64,000 nt of DNA from an uncultured Pseudomonadales bacterium (GTDB lineage: Bacteria; Patescibacteriota; Microgenomatia; UBA1400; PJMF01), in the NCBI GenBank assembly GCA_964633875.1, contig CAZWKL010000001.1, positions 53,530 to 117,529 of the forward strand. Direction: 5' to 3'. Shown piece after piece: positions 54,610 through 61,638 of the stretch (positions are counted from its first letter, which is position 1; every line of letters starts with the position of its first letter). The notes beneath the pieces are model-generated. The model saw only the letters and a list, made by a program, of their open reading frames with translations. It had not been told where the DNA came from and ran no database searches. Position numbers and translations under genes: made by a program.

Positions 54610-54972
54610 TTATTTGATTTTTCTTTTAACAGCGTAAGCGCCGACACCGGTGGTTAAAATACCAACTACCGCCAGTGTTGATTGCAGGTCTAAACTTGTG
54701 TAAACTTCTGAGGCATCGTGCACTCTTGCCAGTACCCGACCGCCAGCTTTAGCAACTTTCTGCTTCTGCTTGCAAACTTGCTCAGCTTTGGTTTTGCAGT
54801 TGGTAACTTGACCGTAAGCGCCGGCCTCACACTCGGTTTCGACCACCTGCTTACATTCTTGCTCTTGCTTGGCCAGGACATCATTATCGTCCTCAGCTTT
54901 GACGTTACCGGTAGTACCGGCCACGGCAGCCAGGGCTATCAACAGAGCCAAAAACATTTGTTTAATCTTCAT
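54610..54972 (-). CDS. Small exported protein with two C-x7-C pairs and a C-terminal hydrophobic segment plus KRKIK tail (cell-wall-sorting-signal-like or membrane anchor)
   Basis: Signal peptide MKIKQMFLALLIALAAVAGTTGNVKA. CKQVVETEC ... CKTKAEQVC. C-terminus LAVVGILTTGVGAYAVKRKIK. Driven by a consensus promoter (see the 55051..55079 feature). Confidence 0.4.
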   Translation of the reverse strand: MKIKQMFLALLIALAAVAGTTGNVKAEDDNDVLAKQEQECKQVVETECEAGAYGQVTNCKTKAEQVCKQKQKVAKAGGRVLARVHDASEVYTSLDLQSTLAVVGILTTGVGAYAVKRKIK

Positions 54973-55050
54973 AATATTTCTTTCAGCAAGGTGGGGCAGA
55001 TTCTTGGCTTGAAGGTAAAAAATAGTTTCAAATTATTACAATTAAGAGGC

Positions 55051-55079
55051 ATTATAAGCGCGGCATGGCCCTTTGTCAA
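55051..55079 (-). promoter_or_regulatory. Consensus sigma70 promoter (-35 TTGACA, 17-bp spacer, -10 TATAAT) reading into the minus-strand locus
   Basis: Minus strand: TTGACAaagggccatgccgcgctTATAAT. Perfect hexamers, ~70 nt upstream of the ATG at 54972. Confidence 0.55.
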
Positions 55080-55096
55080 TAGTTATAGGGCTGTGA

Positions 55097-55287
55097 GGAA
55101 ATGGTAATAGTTGTGTCAGAACGACTCGCAGCCCAAACCTTACAGTAACCAAGCCTCTAGACGACTACGAAAAAGAACTGGCCGACTTTCTTGAAAAAGG
55201 AGAGTATGTTAGTGATCCTAATTTTGCTGAGACTAAAGCCATGATCGAAGAGGCCGCTAAAAGGAATTTAAGCAGCACCTCAGATTA
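55097..55287 (+). pseudogene. Remnant of a BrnA-like (COG3514/DUF4415-type) antitoxin gene, lacking a start codon and the C-terminal ribbon-helix-helix part
   Basis: The frame translates to ...TKPLDDYEKELADFLEKGEYVSDPNFAETKAMIEEAAKRNLSSTSD*. This resembles the N-terminal EExELLEAFEKGExxSVxNxEExKxxxxEAAK region of BrnA-family antitoxins. There is no ATG/GTG/TTG in frame after the upstream stop, and the stop comes before the expected DNA-binding half. Family assignment is from memory only. Confidence 0.3.
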
Positions 55288-55330
55288 AAACTACACTTCT
55301 TGCAAGCTTAGAATGTTAAAATGTGCTTAA

Positions 55331-56362
55331 TTGCAAAATAAGGACATTACTATGGTGCCAAAAAACCGACCACAAGAAAGTGAATTAATTTTATATCGCA
55401 CTGCTGAGGGTGATATTACCGTAGATGTACTTTTTAAAGATGAAACAGTTTGGTTAACTCAAAAAAGAATGGCAGAACTATTTGATGTTGATAGGTCTGT
55501 AATTACAAAGCATCTAAAAAATATTTTTAGTGAAGGTGAGCTGAGTCAAAAAGCAGTTAGTGCAATTTTTGCACATACTGCTTCAGATGGTAAGACATAT
55601 AATACCAATTTCTACAACTTGGACGCAATCATCTCTCTTGGCTACAGGGTTAACTCCTCCCGAGCTACCCAATTTCGTATTTGGGCCACAAAAACACTAC
55701 GCAACTACATTATTAAAGGTTTTGCCATTGATGAAGCCAGGCTAAAAAATGGCTCACACTTTGGTAAAGACTACTTTGCCGAGTTACTCGAGAAAATTAG
55801 AGAAATTCGCGCCAGTGAGCGACGATTTTACCAAAAAATTACCGATTTGTACGCACAGGCAAGCATAGATTATGACCCAAAAGCGAAAATAACTCGAGAG
55901 TTTTTTGCCTCTGTTCAAAACAAACTGCACTGGGCAATTACGGGCAACACGGCAGCAGAGATTATTGCTGATCGAGCTGATGCTAATCAACCAAATATGG
56001 GTTTAAATACCTGGAAGAATGCGCCTAAGGGGAAAATTTTAAAAAGCGATACTCAGGTGGCAAAAAATTATTTATCACCAGATGAGCTGCAGAAGCTAAA
56101 TAGGATCGTTTCTATGTATTTAGATTATGCCGAATTGCAAGCAGAGCGACAGGTACCAATGAAAATGATGGATTGGATTGAACGATTAGATGCGTTTTTG
56201 CAGTTTAACGAATATGAGATACTAGATAATCCTGGTGAAGTTTCTACTGTGGTAGCAAAAAAATTAGCTAGTGATGAATATGATGAGTTTAGAGTTAAAC
56301 AAGATGAAGAATTTGAATCAGATTTTGATCAAGCTGTAAAGAAATTTTTGAAAAAAGCGTAG
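55331..56362 (+). CDS. RhuM-family protein (virulence-associated / DNA-binding, often found in defence and restriction-modification islands)
   Basis: N-terminal ELILYRTAEGDITVDVLFKDETVWLTQKRMAELFDVDRSVITKHLKNIFSEGEL...NFYNLDAIISLGYRVNSSRATQFRIWATKTLRNYIIKGFAIDEARLKNG matches the conserved RhuM core (xLYQTEDGxxxIxVxxxxETVWLxQxQMAELF...HxKNIxxEGEL...YNLDxIISVGYRVxSxRGTQFRxWAT). Confidence 0.8.
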   Translation: MQNKDITMVPKNRPQESELILYRTAEGDITVDVLFKDETVWLTQKRMAELFDVDRSVITKHLKNIFSEGELSQKAVSAIFAHTASDGKTYNTNFYNLDAIISLGYRVNSSRATQFRIWATKTLRNYIIKGFAIDEARLKNGSHFGKDYFAELLEKIREIRASERRFYQKITDLYAQASIDYDPKAKITREFFASVQNKLHWAITGNTAAEIIADRADANQPNMGLNTWKNAPKGKILKSDTQVAKNYLSPDELQKLNRIVSMYLDYAELQAERQVPMKMMDWIERLDAFLQFNEYEILDNPGEVSTVVAKKLASDEYDEFRVKQDEEFESDFDQAVKKFLKKA

Positions 56363-56501
56363 GACGTCCAAGCTTCACCAGCTATTCTCGTTTGTAATGA
56401 CGGAATGGCAGATTGGTTATACCAGCAAGCGAGAAACTTCTCCGGTTGTTTCTTTCGTTACCAAATCACCCTTGTCTTAAAACAACCCAAAAAAGTCCAT
56501 C

Positions 56502-56780
56502 ATGCACATCACCAACTGGCAAACCCACAAACAGCGCCTGCTTGCCAACCCGGCCTTCAAAAAGGAGCTGGACGATCTGGAGCTTAACTATCAAGTGGCT
56601 CGTTTGCTCATCGAGGCCCGGATTAAGAAAGGCCTAACTCAGCAGGAACTGGCTGCTTTAATCAACACCAAACAAGCGGTCATTTCTCGGGTAGAAACCG
56701 GTCAAACTATGCCGTCTTTATCGCTGCTCAAACGGTTGGCCGGAGCTTTGGGGACCACATTCAAACTAGAAATAAAATAA
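56502..56780 (+). CDS. XRE-family HTH DNA-binding protein, HigA-like antitoxin without an intact cognate toxin
   Basis: GLTQQELAALINTKQAVISRVETGQTMPSLSLLKRLAGALG is a classic HTH_XRE. The N-terminal WQTHKQRLLANPAFKKELDDLELNYQVARLLIEAR is typical of antitoxins paired with RelE/HigB-like toxins. Only ~140 nt of non-coding DNA lies upstream. Confidence 0.7.
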   Translation: MHITNWQTHKQRLLANPAFKKELDDLELNYQVARLLIEARIKKGLTQQELAALINTKQAVISRVETGQTMPSLSLLKRLAGALGTTFKLEIK

Positions 56781-56785
56781 CGCCT

Positions 56786-58069
56786 CTACTTCAAGTGCCA
56801 ATAAACACTCATATAATTGTCATCGTGGAAAATGAAAACGCCGTTGCCGCCGTCTCCCAGACAGTTTCTGCAAAAATAAGCCTCGCCGTCCTGGACCGCC
56901 TTAACCGAGTGTGAGCTCATGCCCACCATGTCCAGCGCCGGGTGAGTGTTGCCACCGTACATCCAGTTGTAACAAGTATTGCTGCCGTAGTTTTGAGTAA
57001 TCCGCACATCACTCATCGGCCAGTCCCAACTGCCTTTACCAGAGCTGGTGGAACCACTCGGATCATGCCCGCAGCCGGTAGACCAAGTCACTGTTTTGGA
57101 CTTCAACTTGTCCAACGGATTAATGTGATTACTGTAGTACCAGCCCCAACTACCGGTGTTCTGAAACTGCTTAACGTTATAGCGGTAAATACTAAAATGC
57201 AGGTGAGCGCCGGTAGAGAAGCCGGAATTGCCCATGGTACCAATAGTTTCGCCGCGCTTAACTTTGACCTCATTGCCTTCACGAATCACCACGTTGGCCG
57301 CGCCGGAAATCTGAGCTAACTCTTTTCTAGCCTGGGCCAATAGCTCCTGATACCTGGTTTCGTTGCTTTTGGTGACGTTAAGAATCGCTTCCTGCTCTTG
57401 TTTGCTGGCCGCCAACTCCTGGCGTTTGCCCTCAAGCTGCTGCCGCTTTTCCAGCACTTCATCTTGCTTCACTTCCTTGAGCGATTTTTGCTCATCAAAA
57501 TGCAGCCGCTGTGACTCAGCCCGCGTCATGGCGTAGGCGGTTTGCTCACCGGCTTTGGCCAGATACTTGTACTGAGTCACGAACGAATTAAACGAGTCCG
57601 ACTCGAGCAGTAGTGACAGCGGATTGGTTTGGGTGCGCTTATACTGAGCCTTGACCCGATTAACCAACATCGTCGAGAGCCTGTCCAGGGAAACTCCCAG
57701 GCCGTTAATCCGCTCAGTTAGCTCGGAAATTTCTCTTTCCAGGGTGTTAATTTCAGCCAGCAGCTGATTGATTTGCACTTGCTGAAGGTTGATTTGGCCG
57801 TTGAGAACGCTGATGGTGTTGGTGAGGGTGTTTTTTTCGTTACTAATCACCCCGAGCACTTTTTCCAGACAGGCCGTTTTTTTGTTGTAGCAGGCCATTT
57901 TTTCGTCAGCGTCGTCTTCTTTTTCGCACTTATACTTAGCCTCGCAATCTTCGTTGGCCCGAGCTTTTTGCGTGGAAATACCGGAAAAAATTAAGGTGAA
58001 GCCGAAAAATACTAAAAATACTGCCAGGATTTTGGGGAAAGTGAAGAGTTTGTCGGCAGTGCTTCGCAT
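56786..58069 (-). CDS. EnvC-like murein hydrolase activator / M23 (LytM) peptidase with an N-terminal anchor and long coiled-coil. The M23 domain appears circularly permuted.
   Basis: N-terminal TM/signal plus ~220-aa coiled-coil. M23 C-terminal half (VKVKRGETIGTMGNSGFSTGAHLHFSIY, i.e. ...G.TG.STGPHLHFE) occurs first. ~55 residues later comes the M23 N-terminal half (WDWPMSDVRITQNYG...THPALDMVG..VKAVQDGEAY.....GNGVFIFHDDNYMSVYWHLK*), and the protein ends exactly at the YxHL motif. Operon partner of ftsEX. Confidence 0.8.
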   Translation of the reverse strand: MRSTADKLFTFPKILAVFLVFFGFTLIFSGISTQKARANEDCEAKYKCEKEDDADEKMACYNKKTACLEKVLGVISNEKNTLTNTISVLNGQINLQQVQINQLLAEINTLEREISELTERINGLGVSLDRLSTMLVNRVKAQYKRTQTNPLSLLLESDSFNSFVTQYKYLAKAGEQTAYAMTRAESQRLHFDEQKSLKEVKQDEVLEKRQQLEGKRQELAASKQEQEAILNVTKSNETRYQELLAQARKELAQISGAANVVIREGNEVKVKRGETIGTMGNSGFSTGAHLHFSIYRYNVKQFQNTGSWGWYYSNHINPLDKLKSKTVTWSTGCGHDPSGSTSSGKGSWDWPMSDVRITQNYGSNTCYNWMYGGNTHPALDMVGMSSHSVKAVQDGEAYFCRNCLGDGGNGVFIFHDDNYMSVYWHLK

Positions 58070-58985: not shown

Positions 58986-59903
58986 TTAATTTTCTTCTTC
59001 CTCTTTGTTGGCTTTTTTCTCTTTTGGTAGCTTGGATTTTTTGGATTTTTCGGGCTTGGAGTCGCTGGGTTTGGCTTTTGCAGGCTCGATCTCATCAGCG
59101 GCCGGCTTCTTTTTCTTTAAAACCAGATCCGGAGGTTTGAAAGTTTCACCCCAAATATTTTCTGTTTTAATGTCGGCAGGATCCTCATCGGTGCCGGCAG
59201 TACTGGCAGGCTCCTTTTCCTTTTTAACCTTCTTCTTACCGCCGGCATCCTTCACAATTTGGCCTTTTTCCAAGAAAATTGTTCTCATGCCGGCCAGCTC
59301 ACTCATGATTTCCTGGTCGTGGGTGGCGAAAATCACTGTAGTGCCCAGCTCATTGATTTTGTGGATCAGACGGGCAATTTTCAGGGAAGTGTCTTTATCA
59401 AGGTTGCCGGTCGGTTCGTCCGCAAAAATAATGCTGGGACCGGTAGCCAGCGCCCTGGCAATACTAATCCTTTGCGCCTCGCCACCTGAGAGCTGAGTGG
59501 GGAAAAGTTGAGCTTTATCCGTGAGTTCTACCAGTTTCAACAAGTCCGTTACCCGCTCTTCAATTTCATCACTCTTTTTACCGATAATCATCAGCGGCAA
59601 GGCAATGTTTTCCCAAACATTTAGTTCATGAAGCAGGCGGTAATTTTGAAAAATCACCCCGATTTTCCTCCGATGTTCATGTAGTTGTGAGTTTTTCAGT
59701 TGATTGACGCTGTAATCTTCAAAAAGAATTTCTCCCGCTGTGGGTGTGTACTCCTTGGTAATCAAGCGCATCAGGGTGGTTTTGCCGCTACCCGAGTGGC
59801 CGGTGATGAAAACAAAATCACCCGGATCTACTGAAAAACTAACGTCTTTAACGCCGTAAGAATCTTCAGTGAATTGTTTGGTAACATTGTCAAAAATTAG
59901 CAT
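58986..59903 (-). CDS. ftsE: Cell-division ATP-binding protein FtsE, with a ~85-aa Lys/Glu-rich C-terminal tail
   Basis: Walker A GHSGSGKTTL; signature LSGGEAQRISIARAL; Walker B IIFADEPTGNLD. Tail ...KKKVKKEKEPAS...KSKKSKLPKEKKANKEEEEN. Confidence 0.9.
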   Translation of the reverse strand: MLIFDNVTKQFTEDSYGVKDVSFSVDPGDFVFITGHSGSGKTTLMRLITKEYTPTAGEILFEDYSVNQLKNSQLHEHRRKIGVIFQNYRLLHELNVWENIALPLMIIGKKSDEIEERVTDLLKLVELTDKAQLFPTQLSGGEAQRISIARALATGPSIIFADEPTGNLDKDTSLKIARLIHKINELGTTVIFATHDQEIMSELAGMRTIFLEKGQIVKDAGGKKKVKKEKEPASTAGTDEDPADIKTENIWGETFKPPDLVLKKKKPAADEIEPAKAKPSDSKPEKSKKSKLPKEKKANKEEEEN

Positions 59904-59918
59904 AAAGGCAGGACGGTT

Positions 59919-60482
59919 TTATTCTATCAGTTGTGCTTCTCCTTCAACGTTGAGGACTTCCACTCGACCAACATCCATCAGCCAACCGGCTTTTTGACCT
60001 TTGAAAGTTTCTCCCCAAACCCTCACTTCCATACCCACCAACTTGTCCAGATCAGTGACTGAGGACGTTAAATAAACGGTTTGAGCTTTGCCACCGGGTC
60101 TGAGCAGGCTATGGGAGCCTTCGCCGTCAATGCCGCCTGACTCAAGATAGCCCTGGGCGGAATCTTTGAAAGTTTGCTCGTCGGCGCTGCCAAAAACATC
60201 ACCGGCCTTGACATCGTCCTCAGCTACTCGCTTAATGACTCCGTCCTTGGGCACACCGGTATCATTGCTGTGAACCATACGGTTGGCGGCATAACCGGTG
60301 CCAACTCCAGCCAAGATGGCGATAATTCCAAACATCACAATTGGTTTTTTCAGAAATTTATTGAGTTTTTTCATAGGCGAAACTTGATTATCATTGATTT
60401 GTTCGGTGGGGTCAACCACTGGCTGAGCCGGCTCATTTTCCGGCATAGTTGATGGTGGGGTGGTGAGATCTAGTTTTCGCAT
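59919..60482 (-). CDS. Hypothetical membrane-anchored protein (187 aa)
   Basis: N-terminal cytoplasmic segment, one TM helix (IVMFGIIAILAGVGTGYAA), and an extracytoplasmic domain with no recognisable motifs. Confidence 0.35.
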   Translation of the reverse strand: MRKLDLTTPPSTMPENEPAQPVVDPTEQINDNQVSPMKKLNKFLKKPIVMFGIIAILAGVGTGYAANRMVHSNDTGVPKDGVIKRVAEDDVKAGDVFGSADEQTFKDSAQGYLESGGIDGEGSHSLLRPGGKAQTVYLTSSVTDLDKLVGMEVRVWGETFKGQKAGWLMDVGRVEVLNVEGEAQLIE

Positions 60483-60543: not shown

Positions 60544-61638
60544 TTATAATTTGATTTCTTCCGCGATAAATTCGTCAAGATTACCGTCTAAAACACCGGC
60601 TGTATCGCTGGTTTCCACCTGGGTGCGGGTGTCTTTGACCAGATGATAAGGATGAAGGACGTAATTGCGAATTTGGTTGCCCCAACTGGCTTGGTGATGC
60701 TCGCCTTTTTCTTCTTTGAGTTCGCGGTCCAGTCTGGCTTCTTCCAGTTTGGCCAGCTGAGCCTTGAGTTTTTGCAGGGCGCGCTGCTTGTTTTGCACTT
60801 GCGTTCTTTCTTCCCGGCACTTGACCGTAATGCCGGTAGGCAAGTGGGTGAGCTCAACGGCGGTGGCTACTTTGTTGACATTTTGGCCGCCGGCGCCGCC
60901 CGCCCGGGAAAAATTCCAGGAGAGATCGTTTTCGTTGAGCTCGATTTCGTCCGAAGTTTCGTCAATCAGCGGCAGCACTTCTACCAGGGCAAAAGAAGTT
61001 TGGCGCAAGTTGTCGGCGTTAAAGGGACTTTGCCGCACCAGCCGGTGAGTGCCGGCCTCGCCCTTGAGGTAACCATAAGCGTAGTCCGCCTCAACCGCGT
61101 ACTCTGCCGCCTTAATGCCGGCTTCTTCCCCTCTGGACTCAGAGAGCAGGGTGTACTGCCAGTTTTTTTTGTCGAAGTAGCGCAGGTACATCCGGCGCAG
61201 CATCTCCGCCCAGTCCATAGCTTCAGTGCCGCCTTGCCCGGAGTGAACGGACAGAATGGCGCCGTTTTCGTCGAACTCGCCACTCAAGTAATGCCTCAGT
61301 TCCAGCTCTTTCAAGCCGGACTCCAGTTTTTTTAAGGTTTGTTGGAACTCTTGGTTGAGCTCTTCGTTTTCGTTGGCTGCCTCGCCTAGTAGCTCGAGGT
61401 AAGCTTGGGTGTCTTGGGTGAGGTTTTGTACTCGGTCAAAAAGCTCGATTTTATTTTTAAGACTGGCCAGCCGCCTCATGATGGCTTTGGCTTCCGGTTG
61501 CTGCCAAAAGTCGGGCGCGTAAGTTTGTTTTTCCAGTTCTTGAACTTGGTTTTTGAAGCTGGACAAGTCGCCGGTGTTTAAGTACTGCTCGGCTTTTTCG
61601 ATCAGCAGGGTGGCGGCTTCTCTTGGCAATGAGTTCAT
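60544..61638 (-). CDS. prfB: Peptide chain release factor 2 (no programmed +1 frameshift)
   Basis: GGQ motif ([12 protein letters not shown]) and SPF tripeptide anticodon motif (RQSPFNADN) identify RF2. The ORF is uninterrupted from its ATG. Confidence 0.9.

Follow-up and report, generated by a model that had tools for sequence, protein, structure and literature searches.

The 64,000-nt stretch of contig CAZWKL010000001.1 analyzed here (the window; all coordinates are positions in it, and (-) marks the minus strand) carries a co-directional block of genes that runs from prfB (60544-61638) through a gene for a 187-amino-acid (aa) protein, ftsE and ftsX to a gene for a 427-aa protein with a peptidase domain of the M23 (LytM) family, which is the last of the block. 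The open reading frame (ORF) of this last gene, 56786-58069(-), is uninterrupted, and in the list of ORFs with translations its product ends in ...YMSVYWHLK followed by the stop codon. We concluded from sequence comparisons that the M23 domain is circularly permuted and that the rearrangement is real. The protein is most likely an active, FtsEX-controlled peptidoglycan endopeptidase for cell division, not an inactive activator of the EnvC type.

Order of the Two Halves of the M23 Domain

In canonical M23 domains the motifs follow one another in the order HxxxD, YxH and HxH. In the 427-aa protein the order is HxH, then HxxxD, then YxH, and the Pfam profile PF01551 (M23) matched it at 57.2 bits (gathering cut-off 28.7), with the match split into two stretches. 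In a phmmer search against PDB chains, residues 341-426 (the HxxxD...YxHL half, hereafter the N-half) aligned with residues 15-93 of DipM, and residues 269-296 (the GxxIGxxGxTGxxxxxHLHF half, hereafter the C-half) aligned with residues 103-129. Chain residues 15-93 make up the first two-thirds of the LytM domain of DipM and 103-129 the last third; the query has the reverse order. The C-half, which comes first, reads VKVKRGETIGTMGNSGFSTGAH289LH291F, followed by a lineage-specific WGWYYSN insert and then a ...NPLDKL tail. The N-half, which comes last, reads WDWP...ITQNYG...H376PALD380...GNGVFIFH...YWH425LK.

The classical test for circular permutation was performed by artificially fusing residues 341-427 ahead of residues 255-325. 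The re-joined sequence gave a single continuous Pfam M23 match (profile positions 2-91 of 96, 67.4 bits), and single PDB alignments with DipM (7qrl, 10-123), phage Gp16, TagE, ShyA, LytM and lysostaphin spanned the artificial junction. As an example, ...YWHLK/SGAANVVIREGNEVKVKRGE (junction at the slash) was aligned with YAHLSS--TNVKMRQ----QVKQGE. Since single alignments run across the junction, the new termini correspond to the loop behind the catalytic YxHL strand. Residues 323-347 connect the old termini (...NPLDKL and WDWP...), and the stop codon is found two residues past the catalytic histidine H425. The circular permutation proposed in the original prediction is thus borne out by the re-joining test.

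The reversed halves and the ORF end right after YWHL, both noted in that prediction, recurred in an alignment of 45 homologues with 43-73% identity: 45/45 had the same half order and ended right after YWH[LM]. Among complete members of the permuted family, 209/240 end exactly two residues past the catalytic histidine, and this near-fixed stop suggests a constraint at that site. The predicted connector of ~55 aa needs to be divided, as it includes the normal M23 C-terminal tail (...NPLDKL, to about residue 322) and the WGWYYSN insert; the truly new linker is ~20-25 aa long (323-347). Connector residues W329, T331, C333, D336, P337, G339 and G344 are conserved in the protein's own subgroup, and the length of the connector varies family-wide. 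The other origin that had been considered, a domain swap between two degenerate copies, was rejected: there are no extra half-domains, and neither Pfam nor the half-profile parse gave a half-domain signal outside residues 265-427. Full-text literature searches turned up no account of an M23 or LytM domain that is permuted, and such a domain is apparently previously undescribed.

Features of the Protein and Its Neighbors

Coordinates of the protein parts and the adjacent genes are collected in Table 1.

Table 1. Parts of the permuted M23 protein and the genes upstream of it in the window.
Feature	Position	Strand	Details and evidence
Entire gene, for a coiled-coil protein with a membrane anchor and a circularly permuted M23 peptidase domain	56786..58069	-	427 aa + stop; ORF list, Pfam, homologues
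N-terminal hydrophobic segment, residues ~13-31, signal peptide or membrane anchor	57977..58033	-	Sequence KILAVFLVFFGFTLIFSGI; predicted helix 13-37
Cys-rich spacer, C42, C48, C60, C66	57872..57946	-	Columns of the 45-homologue alignment; Pacebacteria-type subgroup only
Coiled-coil helix 1, residues 54-146	57632..57910	-	Alignment-based AlphaFold2 (AF2) model; Foldseek matches to EnvC, RipC, RipA N-domain and PcsB coiled coils
Hairpin tip between the long helices, residues 147-159	57593..57631	-	Flanked by invariant Y143 and Y169; alignment, AF2 model
Coiled-coil helix 2, residues 160-258	57296..57592	-	AF2 model
M23 C-half, placed first, residues 265-325	57095..57277	-	Pfam profile positions 61-91; PDB alignments; H289 and H291 invariant
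Connector from canonical C-terminus to canonical N-terminus, residues 326-344, predicted beta-hairpin	57038..57094	-	Alignment, AF2 model, gap profile, linker statistics
M23 N-half, placed last, residues 345-427	56789..57037	-	Aligns with DipM 15-93; Pfam profile from position 2; H376, D380 and H425 invariant
ftsX, 289 aa	58113..58982	-	FtsX_ECD and FtsX permease domains (Pfam); synteny in L001-L028, L081-83
ftsE, 305 aa, ABC ATPase with Lys/Glu/Pro-rich C-terminal tail of ~90 aa	58986..59903	-	ABC_tran (Pfam); relatives match residues 1-216 only
187-aa protein without Pfam family, between prfB and ftsE	59919..60482	-	Homologue at the same position in 15 loci (L002-L015, L019)

The protein contains two sets of conserved cysteines. 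The first is the spacer between the anchor and the coiled coil (CxxxxxC...C.....C). The second, in the M23 domain, consists of C333, C366, C400 and C403 and includes the motif FCRNC; it is near-invariant in the protein's own subgroup and absent from the divergent permuted members. The conserved cysteines may form disulfides or a second metal site. Judged from the sequence comparisons, the WGWYYSN insert and the domain cysteines are later embellishments of the subgroup.

Catalytic Residues and Predicted Reassembly of the Fold

The M23 motifs are present as HxxxD (H376-PAL-D380), HxH (H289-L-H291) and the YxHL-strand histidine H425. Among 63 diverse full-length permuted representatives, these five residues show 100% conservation, as do P351 and Q359. 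From what is known of LytM and lysostaphin, we take the zinc ligands to be H376, D380 (HxxxD) and H291 (the second histidine of HxH), with H289 and H425 as the catalytic histidines. The original prediction had listed four metal ligands (H, D, H, H). All of these residues are indeed present, but the list has to be corrected in that H289 and H425 are catalytic histidines and not ligands. Its suggestion that the domain is catalytically competent and not degenerate is supported by the complete conservation of the five residues. A complete M23 domain with zinc ligands and catalytic histidines argues that the protein is most likely itself the septal peptidoglycan endopeptidase.

The alignment-based AF2 model had a mean pLDDT (predicted local distance difference test) score of 82.6, with most of residues 268-427 at ~90 or above; ten-residue block means over residues 271-427 were in the range of 74-97, most of them at least 90. 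Predicted strands are found at 268-270, 275-279 and 290-295 in the first half and at 355-359, 378-383, 395-400, 409-415 and 419-426 in the second half. The coiled coil is modeled as two antiparallel helices of ~95 residues each with a short tip. A single-sequence AlphaFold prediction gave a pLDDT of ~25 for the M23 domain and was of no use.

Contacts between the halves were estimated by mean-field direct coupling analysis (DCA) of 231 permuted domains (effective number ~154). For comparison, 166 canonical M23 domains together with the re-ordered query (167 rows in all) were aligned to the re-ordered query and analyzed in the same manner. The share of cross-half pairs among the top DCA pairs (23/60) was not above chance, as 43% of all pairs are cross-half, and the overlap with canonical M23 was therefore used in its place. 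Among the top 20, three cross-half pairs were common to the permuted and canonical sets versus 0.12 expected (p = 2e-4), and among the top 40 there were five (p = 9e-5); this overlap is on a par with that of the within-half positive control. The top cross-half couplings fall on predicted strands (I276-I413, V270-A397, I294-S421, T275-S388, G277-L426, and S293-V422). The pair G277-L426 covaries in both sets, although the two residues are 149 residues apart here and ~20 apart in the canonical domain.

The two halves are predicted, from evidence that is indirect, to come together as the usual beta-sheet core of M23 domains, in which they would jointly form one zinc site. Alternatively, the halves might fail to reassemble within one chain, being either remnants in a non-catalytic scaffold or activator (similar to EnvC, NlpD or DipM) or parts that complement each other between protomers in a domain-swapped dimer. 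Inactive domains are frequent among LytM factors, dimerization is possible for FtsEX partners such as PcsB (PMC11627006), and covariation cannot separate intra-chain from inter-chain contacts. We consider this alternative improbable. Invariance of the three zinc ligands and both catalytic histidines is not expected of a degenerate activator; EnvC, which has W320, V324 and Y401 at the zinc-ligand positions (PMC11627006), stands in contrast to the permuted family in this respect. The AF2 model of the monomer has high confidence in each of the two halves, and the cross-half covariation agrees with canonical M23 contacts. In addition, the distance from the second histidine of HxH to the proline of WxWP varies from 23 to 70 residues (median 60), such that the linker can almost vanish; since very short linkers are tolerated, the canonical termini must be adjacent.

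Association with FtsEX

The M23 gene follows ftsX after a gap of 43 nt, and ftsE and ftsX are separated by 3 nt. In 28 related genome loci (L001-L028), the M23 gene is located directly after ftsE-ftsX wherever the sequence covers the upstream region (two short contigs reach only into ftsX). This gene order is kept while FtsX identity falls from 92% to ~23%, and 21 of the 28 loci have prfB further upstream. The divergent P0088 lineage shares the ftsE-ftsX-M23 order; its M23 sequence is far more canonical-looking and equally permuted. The association with FtsEX is thus a genetic one, by synteny.

Foldseek comparison with the PDB gave EnvC in the V. cholerae FtsEX-EnvC complex (8tzl_E) as the best match, and the coiled coils of RipC, RipA N-domain and PcsB were also matched. 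Full-length Foldseek searches (PDB, BFVD) were dominated by coiled coils (SMC, pore-forming toxins, tail proteins) and returned nothing on the M23 core. The Pfam scan detected a weak match to PF24568 (CC_PcsB) at residues 134-173, and homologues carry this PcsB coiled-coil family. The earlier description of the protein as an EnvC-like FtsEX partner is supported by both the synteny and the architecture, i.e., an anchor, two long antiparallel helices and EnvC as the best fold match. By analogy with EnvC, in which the corresponding region is residues 114-160 (PMC11627006), the hairpin tip (residues 147-159) is the putative binding region for the FtsX extracellular domain (ECD).

We estimate a probability of roughly 0.8 that the gene encodes an extracytoplasmic FtsEX partner of Patescibacteria (the candidate phyla radiation, CPR) that consists of an anchor, an EnvC/PcsB-like coiled coil and a complete permuted M23 endopeptidase, itself active. 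Several points weigh against this reading. The nearest canonical coiled-coil M23 relatives whose loci were examined, P0222 (Moranbacteria) and P0256, do not adjoin ftsEX, so that a coiled coil plus an M23 domain alone does not prove FtsEX partnership. Residues 254-264, which link the last helix to the first strand, are of low confidence in the AF2 model, and a rigid coupling of coiled coil and domain is therefore unsupported. The covariation is drawn from families with an effective number of only ~150 sequences each.

The first of these points would also fit an active hydrolase that is not regulated by FtsEX and is adjacent to ftsEX only by sharing a cell-envelope operon, and the permuted domain does occur without FtsEX context (P0174 in a locus resembling a type IV secretion system (T4SS); P0180; P0233). 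Such an independent hydrolase appears to us a poor prospect in view of the ftsE-ftsX-M23 order, which is kept over a wide range of FtsX identity in every related locus that covers the upstream region, the short intergenic gaps, the EnvC fold match and the presence of PF24568 in homologues. The two-helix coiled coil is, moreover, the defining FtsX-binding module of EnvC, PcsB, CwlO and RipC (PMC11627006).

Conservation and Distribution of the Permuted Domain

A first database search yielded 449 homologues. A search of 1.84 billion representative proteins with the domain profile followed, and its 150 best clusters (50% identity) were parsed with separate half-profiles. Among them were 82 permuted proteins, 27 tandem M23-M23 proteins and 23 canonical M23 proteins with a coiled coil. 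The order C-half then N-half was found in 243 of the 391 proteins retrieved; the permutation is conserved. Permuted members extend down to ~35% domain identity and come from NCBI, JGI, ENA and Logan assemblies of many samples.

Misassembly or a frameshift, against which the original prediction had cautioned, is not supported: an assembly, frameshift or gene-calling artefact hiding an ordinary N-to-C M23 domain, considered only because the sequence is of metagenome type and with nothing found in its favor, can be dismissed given the uninterrupted ORF, the recurrence of order and stop position in the 243 sequences from independent assemblies, and the permuted order in 28 species-level genome loci.

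Named permuted proteins are assigned to Patescibacteria, the Microgenomates group and Daviesbacteria, and one is labeled 'Nanoarchaeia'. The related genome loci are titled Pacebacteria, Paceibacterota, WWE3 or Patescibacteria. Titles reading 'uncultured Pseudomonadales bacterium' or 'Candidatus Saccharibacteria' were seen for L001, L002, L004, L006, L007, L009, L010, L013, L015-L018, L022-L024 and L027. Because locus synteny and closest relatives are those of Pacebacteria/WWE3, the Pseudomonadales, Saccharibacteria and 'Nanoarchaeia archaeon' labels look unreliable. Database names of the relatives are generic, such as 'CwlO-like' (JGI), 'hypothetical' or 'DD-metalloendopeptidase family', and domain callers report two partial M23 matches.

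Comparison with Known Systems

EnvC (E. coli, V. cholerae, P. aeruginosa; PDB 6TPI, 8TZL, 8I6O) shares with the permuted protein a signal or anchor segment, a long antiparallel two-helix coiled coil, a C-terminal LytM/M23 domain and a link to FtsEX, which for the permuted protein is by synteny. In contrast, EnvC carries a LytM domain that is canonical in order and degenerate, lacking the zinc ligands, whereas here it is permuted and its catalytic residues are invariant. The NCBIfam EnvC model (NF008644) scored 15.2 bits against a cut-off of 270 and matched the coiled coil only. Of the features typical of EnvC, the two long antiparallel helices ahead of the LytM domain are present and a degenerate LytM domain is not. 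EnvC serves as an activator of AmiA and AmiB, and a helix termed the 'restraining arm' keeps it autoinhibited (PMC11627006); in the 427-aa protein no separate element of this kind was identified.

PcsB (S. pneumoniae), CwlO (B. subtilis) and RipC (M. tuberculosis) likewise combine a coiled-coil FtsX-binding module and a hydrolase in one polypeptide, but in these proteins the catalytic part is a CHAP or NlpC/P60 cysteine peptidase and not an M23 zinc peptidase. The known FtsEX partners are EnvC (inactive LytM), PcsB (CHAP), and CwlO and RipC (NlpC/P60) (PMC11627006), and an active M23 partner, let alone a permuted one, is absent from that list.

Canonical M23 domains (LytM 2B0P, lysostaphin 4QP5, ShyA 6UE4, phage Gp16 9M7N and the coiled-coil protein P0222) have the same HxxxD, YxH and HxH motifs, and the re-joined sequence aligns with them end to end. 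They differ in segment order, which is reversed here, the new termini lying beside the catalytic YxH strand and the old termini being fused by a variable linker. A precedent for a permuted peptidoglycan-peptidase superfamily is given by the circularly permuted NlpC/P60 proteins (YaeF/poxvirus G6R, LRAT-like), in which the catalytic residues are swapped in order (PMC6403190). These differ in fold and catalytic type, and the literature search found no equivalent for M23. Hybrid-barrel (HABAS/barrel-sandwich hybrid) domains, in an alignment that includes the M23 peptidase A0A0E3QUJ6, show three topologies related by circular permutation across families (PMC11515920); that work compared distant superfamilies and did not describe a permuted M23 catalytic domain.

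Proposed Mode of Action and Implications

M23/LytM domains are among the best-studied cell-wall enzymes, examples being lysostaphin, LytM, ShyA and the EnvC/NlpD/DipM regulators, and the coupling of hydrolases to FtsEX is a current structural topic. In the mechanism we propose, the tip of the coiled coil would dock between two FtsX ECDs. The chain joins the M23 domain in the loop that canonically comes after the catalytic YxHL strand, passes through the half with GxxIGxxGxTGxxxxxHLHF and the usual C-terminal tail, continues via the new linker to the normal N-terminus (WxWP...HxxxD...) and then stops. Zinc would be held by H376, D380 and H291, with H289 and H425 acting in catalysis. ATP binding and hydrolysis by FtsE would move the FtsX ECDs, and the coiled coil would be compressed or shifted in such a way that the active hydrolase is released or positioned at the septum. 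The protein most likely acts in the mode of PcsB, CwlO or RipC, unlike the inactive amidase activator EnvC. The geometry would differ: the coiled coil probably feeds into the domain beside the catalytic YxH strand instead of at the far N-terminal edge, with the chain ending two residues past H425. Reassembly of the fold, docking on FtsX, activity as an enzyme and the way in which it is regulated are predictions.

A further proposal is that the permutation, far from neutral, rewires FtsEX control. The end of helix 2 would be tethered at the lip of the active-site cleft, and the coiled coil or the C-terminal carboxylate would gate the zinc site directly, taking the place of the restraining arm of EnvC. 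We regard this as a doubtful and tentative idea; because of the low-confidence linker at 254-264, direct gating is treated as a possibility and not as a finding. If true, the near-fixed stop would reflect the direct-gating mechanism, and the rewiring would explain the displacement of the canonical module by the permuted one throughout Microgenomates, Pacebacteria and WWE3 and the later reuse of the permuted module by a T4SS-like system.

A widespread natural permutant indicates that the M23 core can accommodate termini newly placed next to the active site, which could be useful for lysostaphin-type enzybiotics and fusions. Attachment of the coiled coil at another place on the catalytic domain offers a handle on how FtsEX transmits activation. 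With this protein, a predicted active M23 enzyme would be added to the direct FtsEX partners, so far CHAP, NlpC/P60 and inactive LytM proteins. The finding is also relevant to CPR/Patescibacteria, a large uncultured part of the bacterial tree in which the division machinery has barely been studied, and a dedicated profile would improve the annotation of CPR genomes.

Origin and Other Occurrences of the Permuted Domain

In a rough neighbor-joining (NJ) tree, the permuted domains grouped with canonical coiled-coil M23 proteins of ~410-430 aa, which had the lowest mean distance to the permuted set. One such canonical protein, P0222, is from Candidatus Moranbacteria, also a CPR group. The nearest neighbor was permuted for 113 of 114 permuted domains. 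NJ bipartitions on 113 columns were unstable (best-split F 0.66-0.97 over 18 resamples). A single origin of the permuted clade is likely, with P0255 as an outlier.

Tandem M23-M23 proteins (NCNC) occur frequently, making up 27 of the best 150 clusters and 25 of the 391 proteins in total, so that raw material exists for permutation by the usual duplication-then-truncation route. A duplication intermediate (coiled coil, C-half and full M23) was sought among the parsed proteins, and no true one was found. The half-profile parse had flagged P0246 and P0274 as 'CNC' intermediates; both were rejected as ordinary tandem M23-M23 proteins on reading.

The permuted domain is also found at the C-terminus of P0174 (1118 aa, ...ISLYWHLQ; loci L088 6001-9357 and L089 3196-6552). 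The surrounding locus resembles a T4SS, with six T4SS_pilin genes, PrgI, a TraC-like gene and a VirB4-like ATPase, and adjoins dnaA and dnaN; P0174 is probably the wall-piercing hydrolase of this system. Judged by these sequence contexts, the permuted M23 domain behaves as a portable module. P0233 (L086 6001-9771), a 1256-aa protein with permuted M23, a long helical transmembrane-containing region and unannotated neighbors, is possibly of phage or tape-measure type. P0180 is a 307-aa membrane protein with permuted M23. Both P0233 and P0180 run 5-6 residues beyond the usual stop position.

Other Genes at the Locus

The 187-aa gene is possibly the first gene of the operon. A pattern scan detected a promoter-like site upstream of it at 60519-60491(-); terminator-like matches within the block were weak only, and fewer than in shuffled sequence. 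The 187-aa protein has an N-terminal hydrophobic segment and is absent from WWE3-type loci; it could be an uncharacterized component of the division operon. The tail of FtsE (residues 217-305, 58986-59255(-)) is of low complexity (KKKVKKEKEP...KKANKEEEEN), and as relatives align with FtsE 1-216 only, it is variable or lineage-specific.

Downstream of the M23 gene, a gene of the RhuM family (343 aa, Pfam E = 4e-110) and one of the XRE-type helix-turn-helix (HTH) kind (92 aa) are located at 55331-56780(+), between the M23 gene and the gene for a small membrane protein at 54610-54972. The GC content of this stretch is low (0.36-0.40 over ~55000-56500, compared to ~0.45-0.50), and L001, a locus with 95% identity, has the HTH gene as well. 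Since a homologue of the small protein directly follows the M23 gene in L002, L004 and L081-83, the RhuM/HTH stretch appears to be a mobile insertion. The small secreted protein (120 aa, 54610-54972(-)) has a C-terminal hydrophobic segment and a KRKIK tail, an end that resembles a cell-wall sorting signal without an obvious LPXTG, and is a conserved downstream neighbor of the M23 gene in several relatives.

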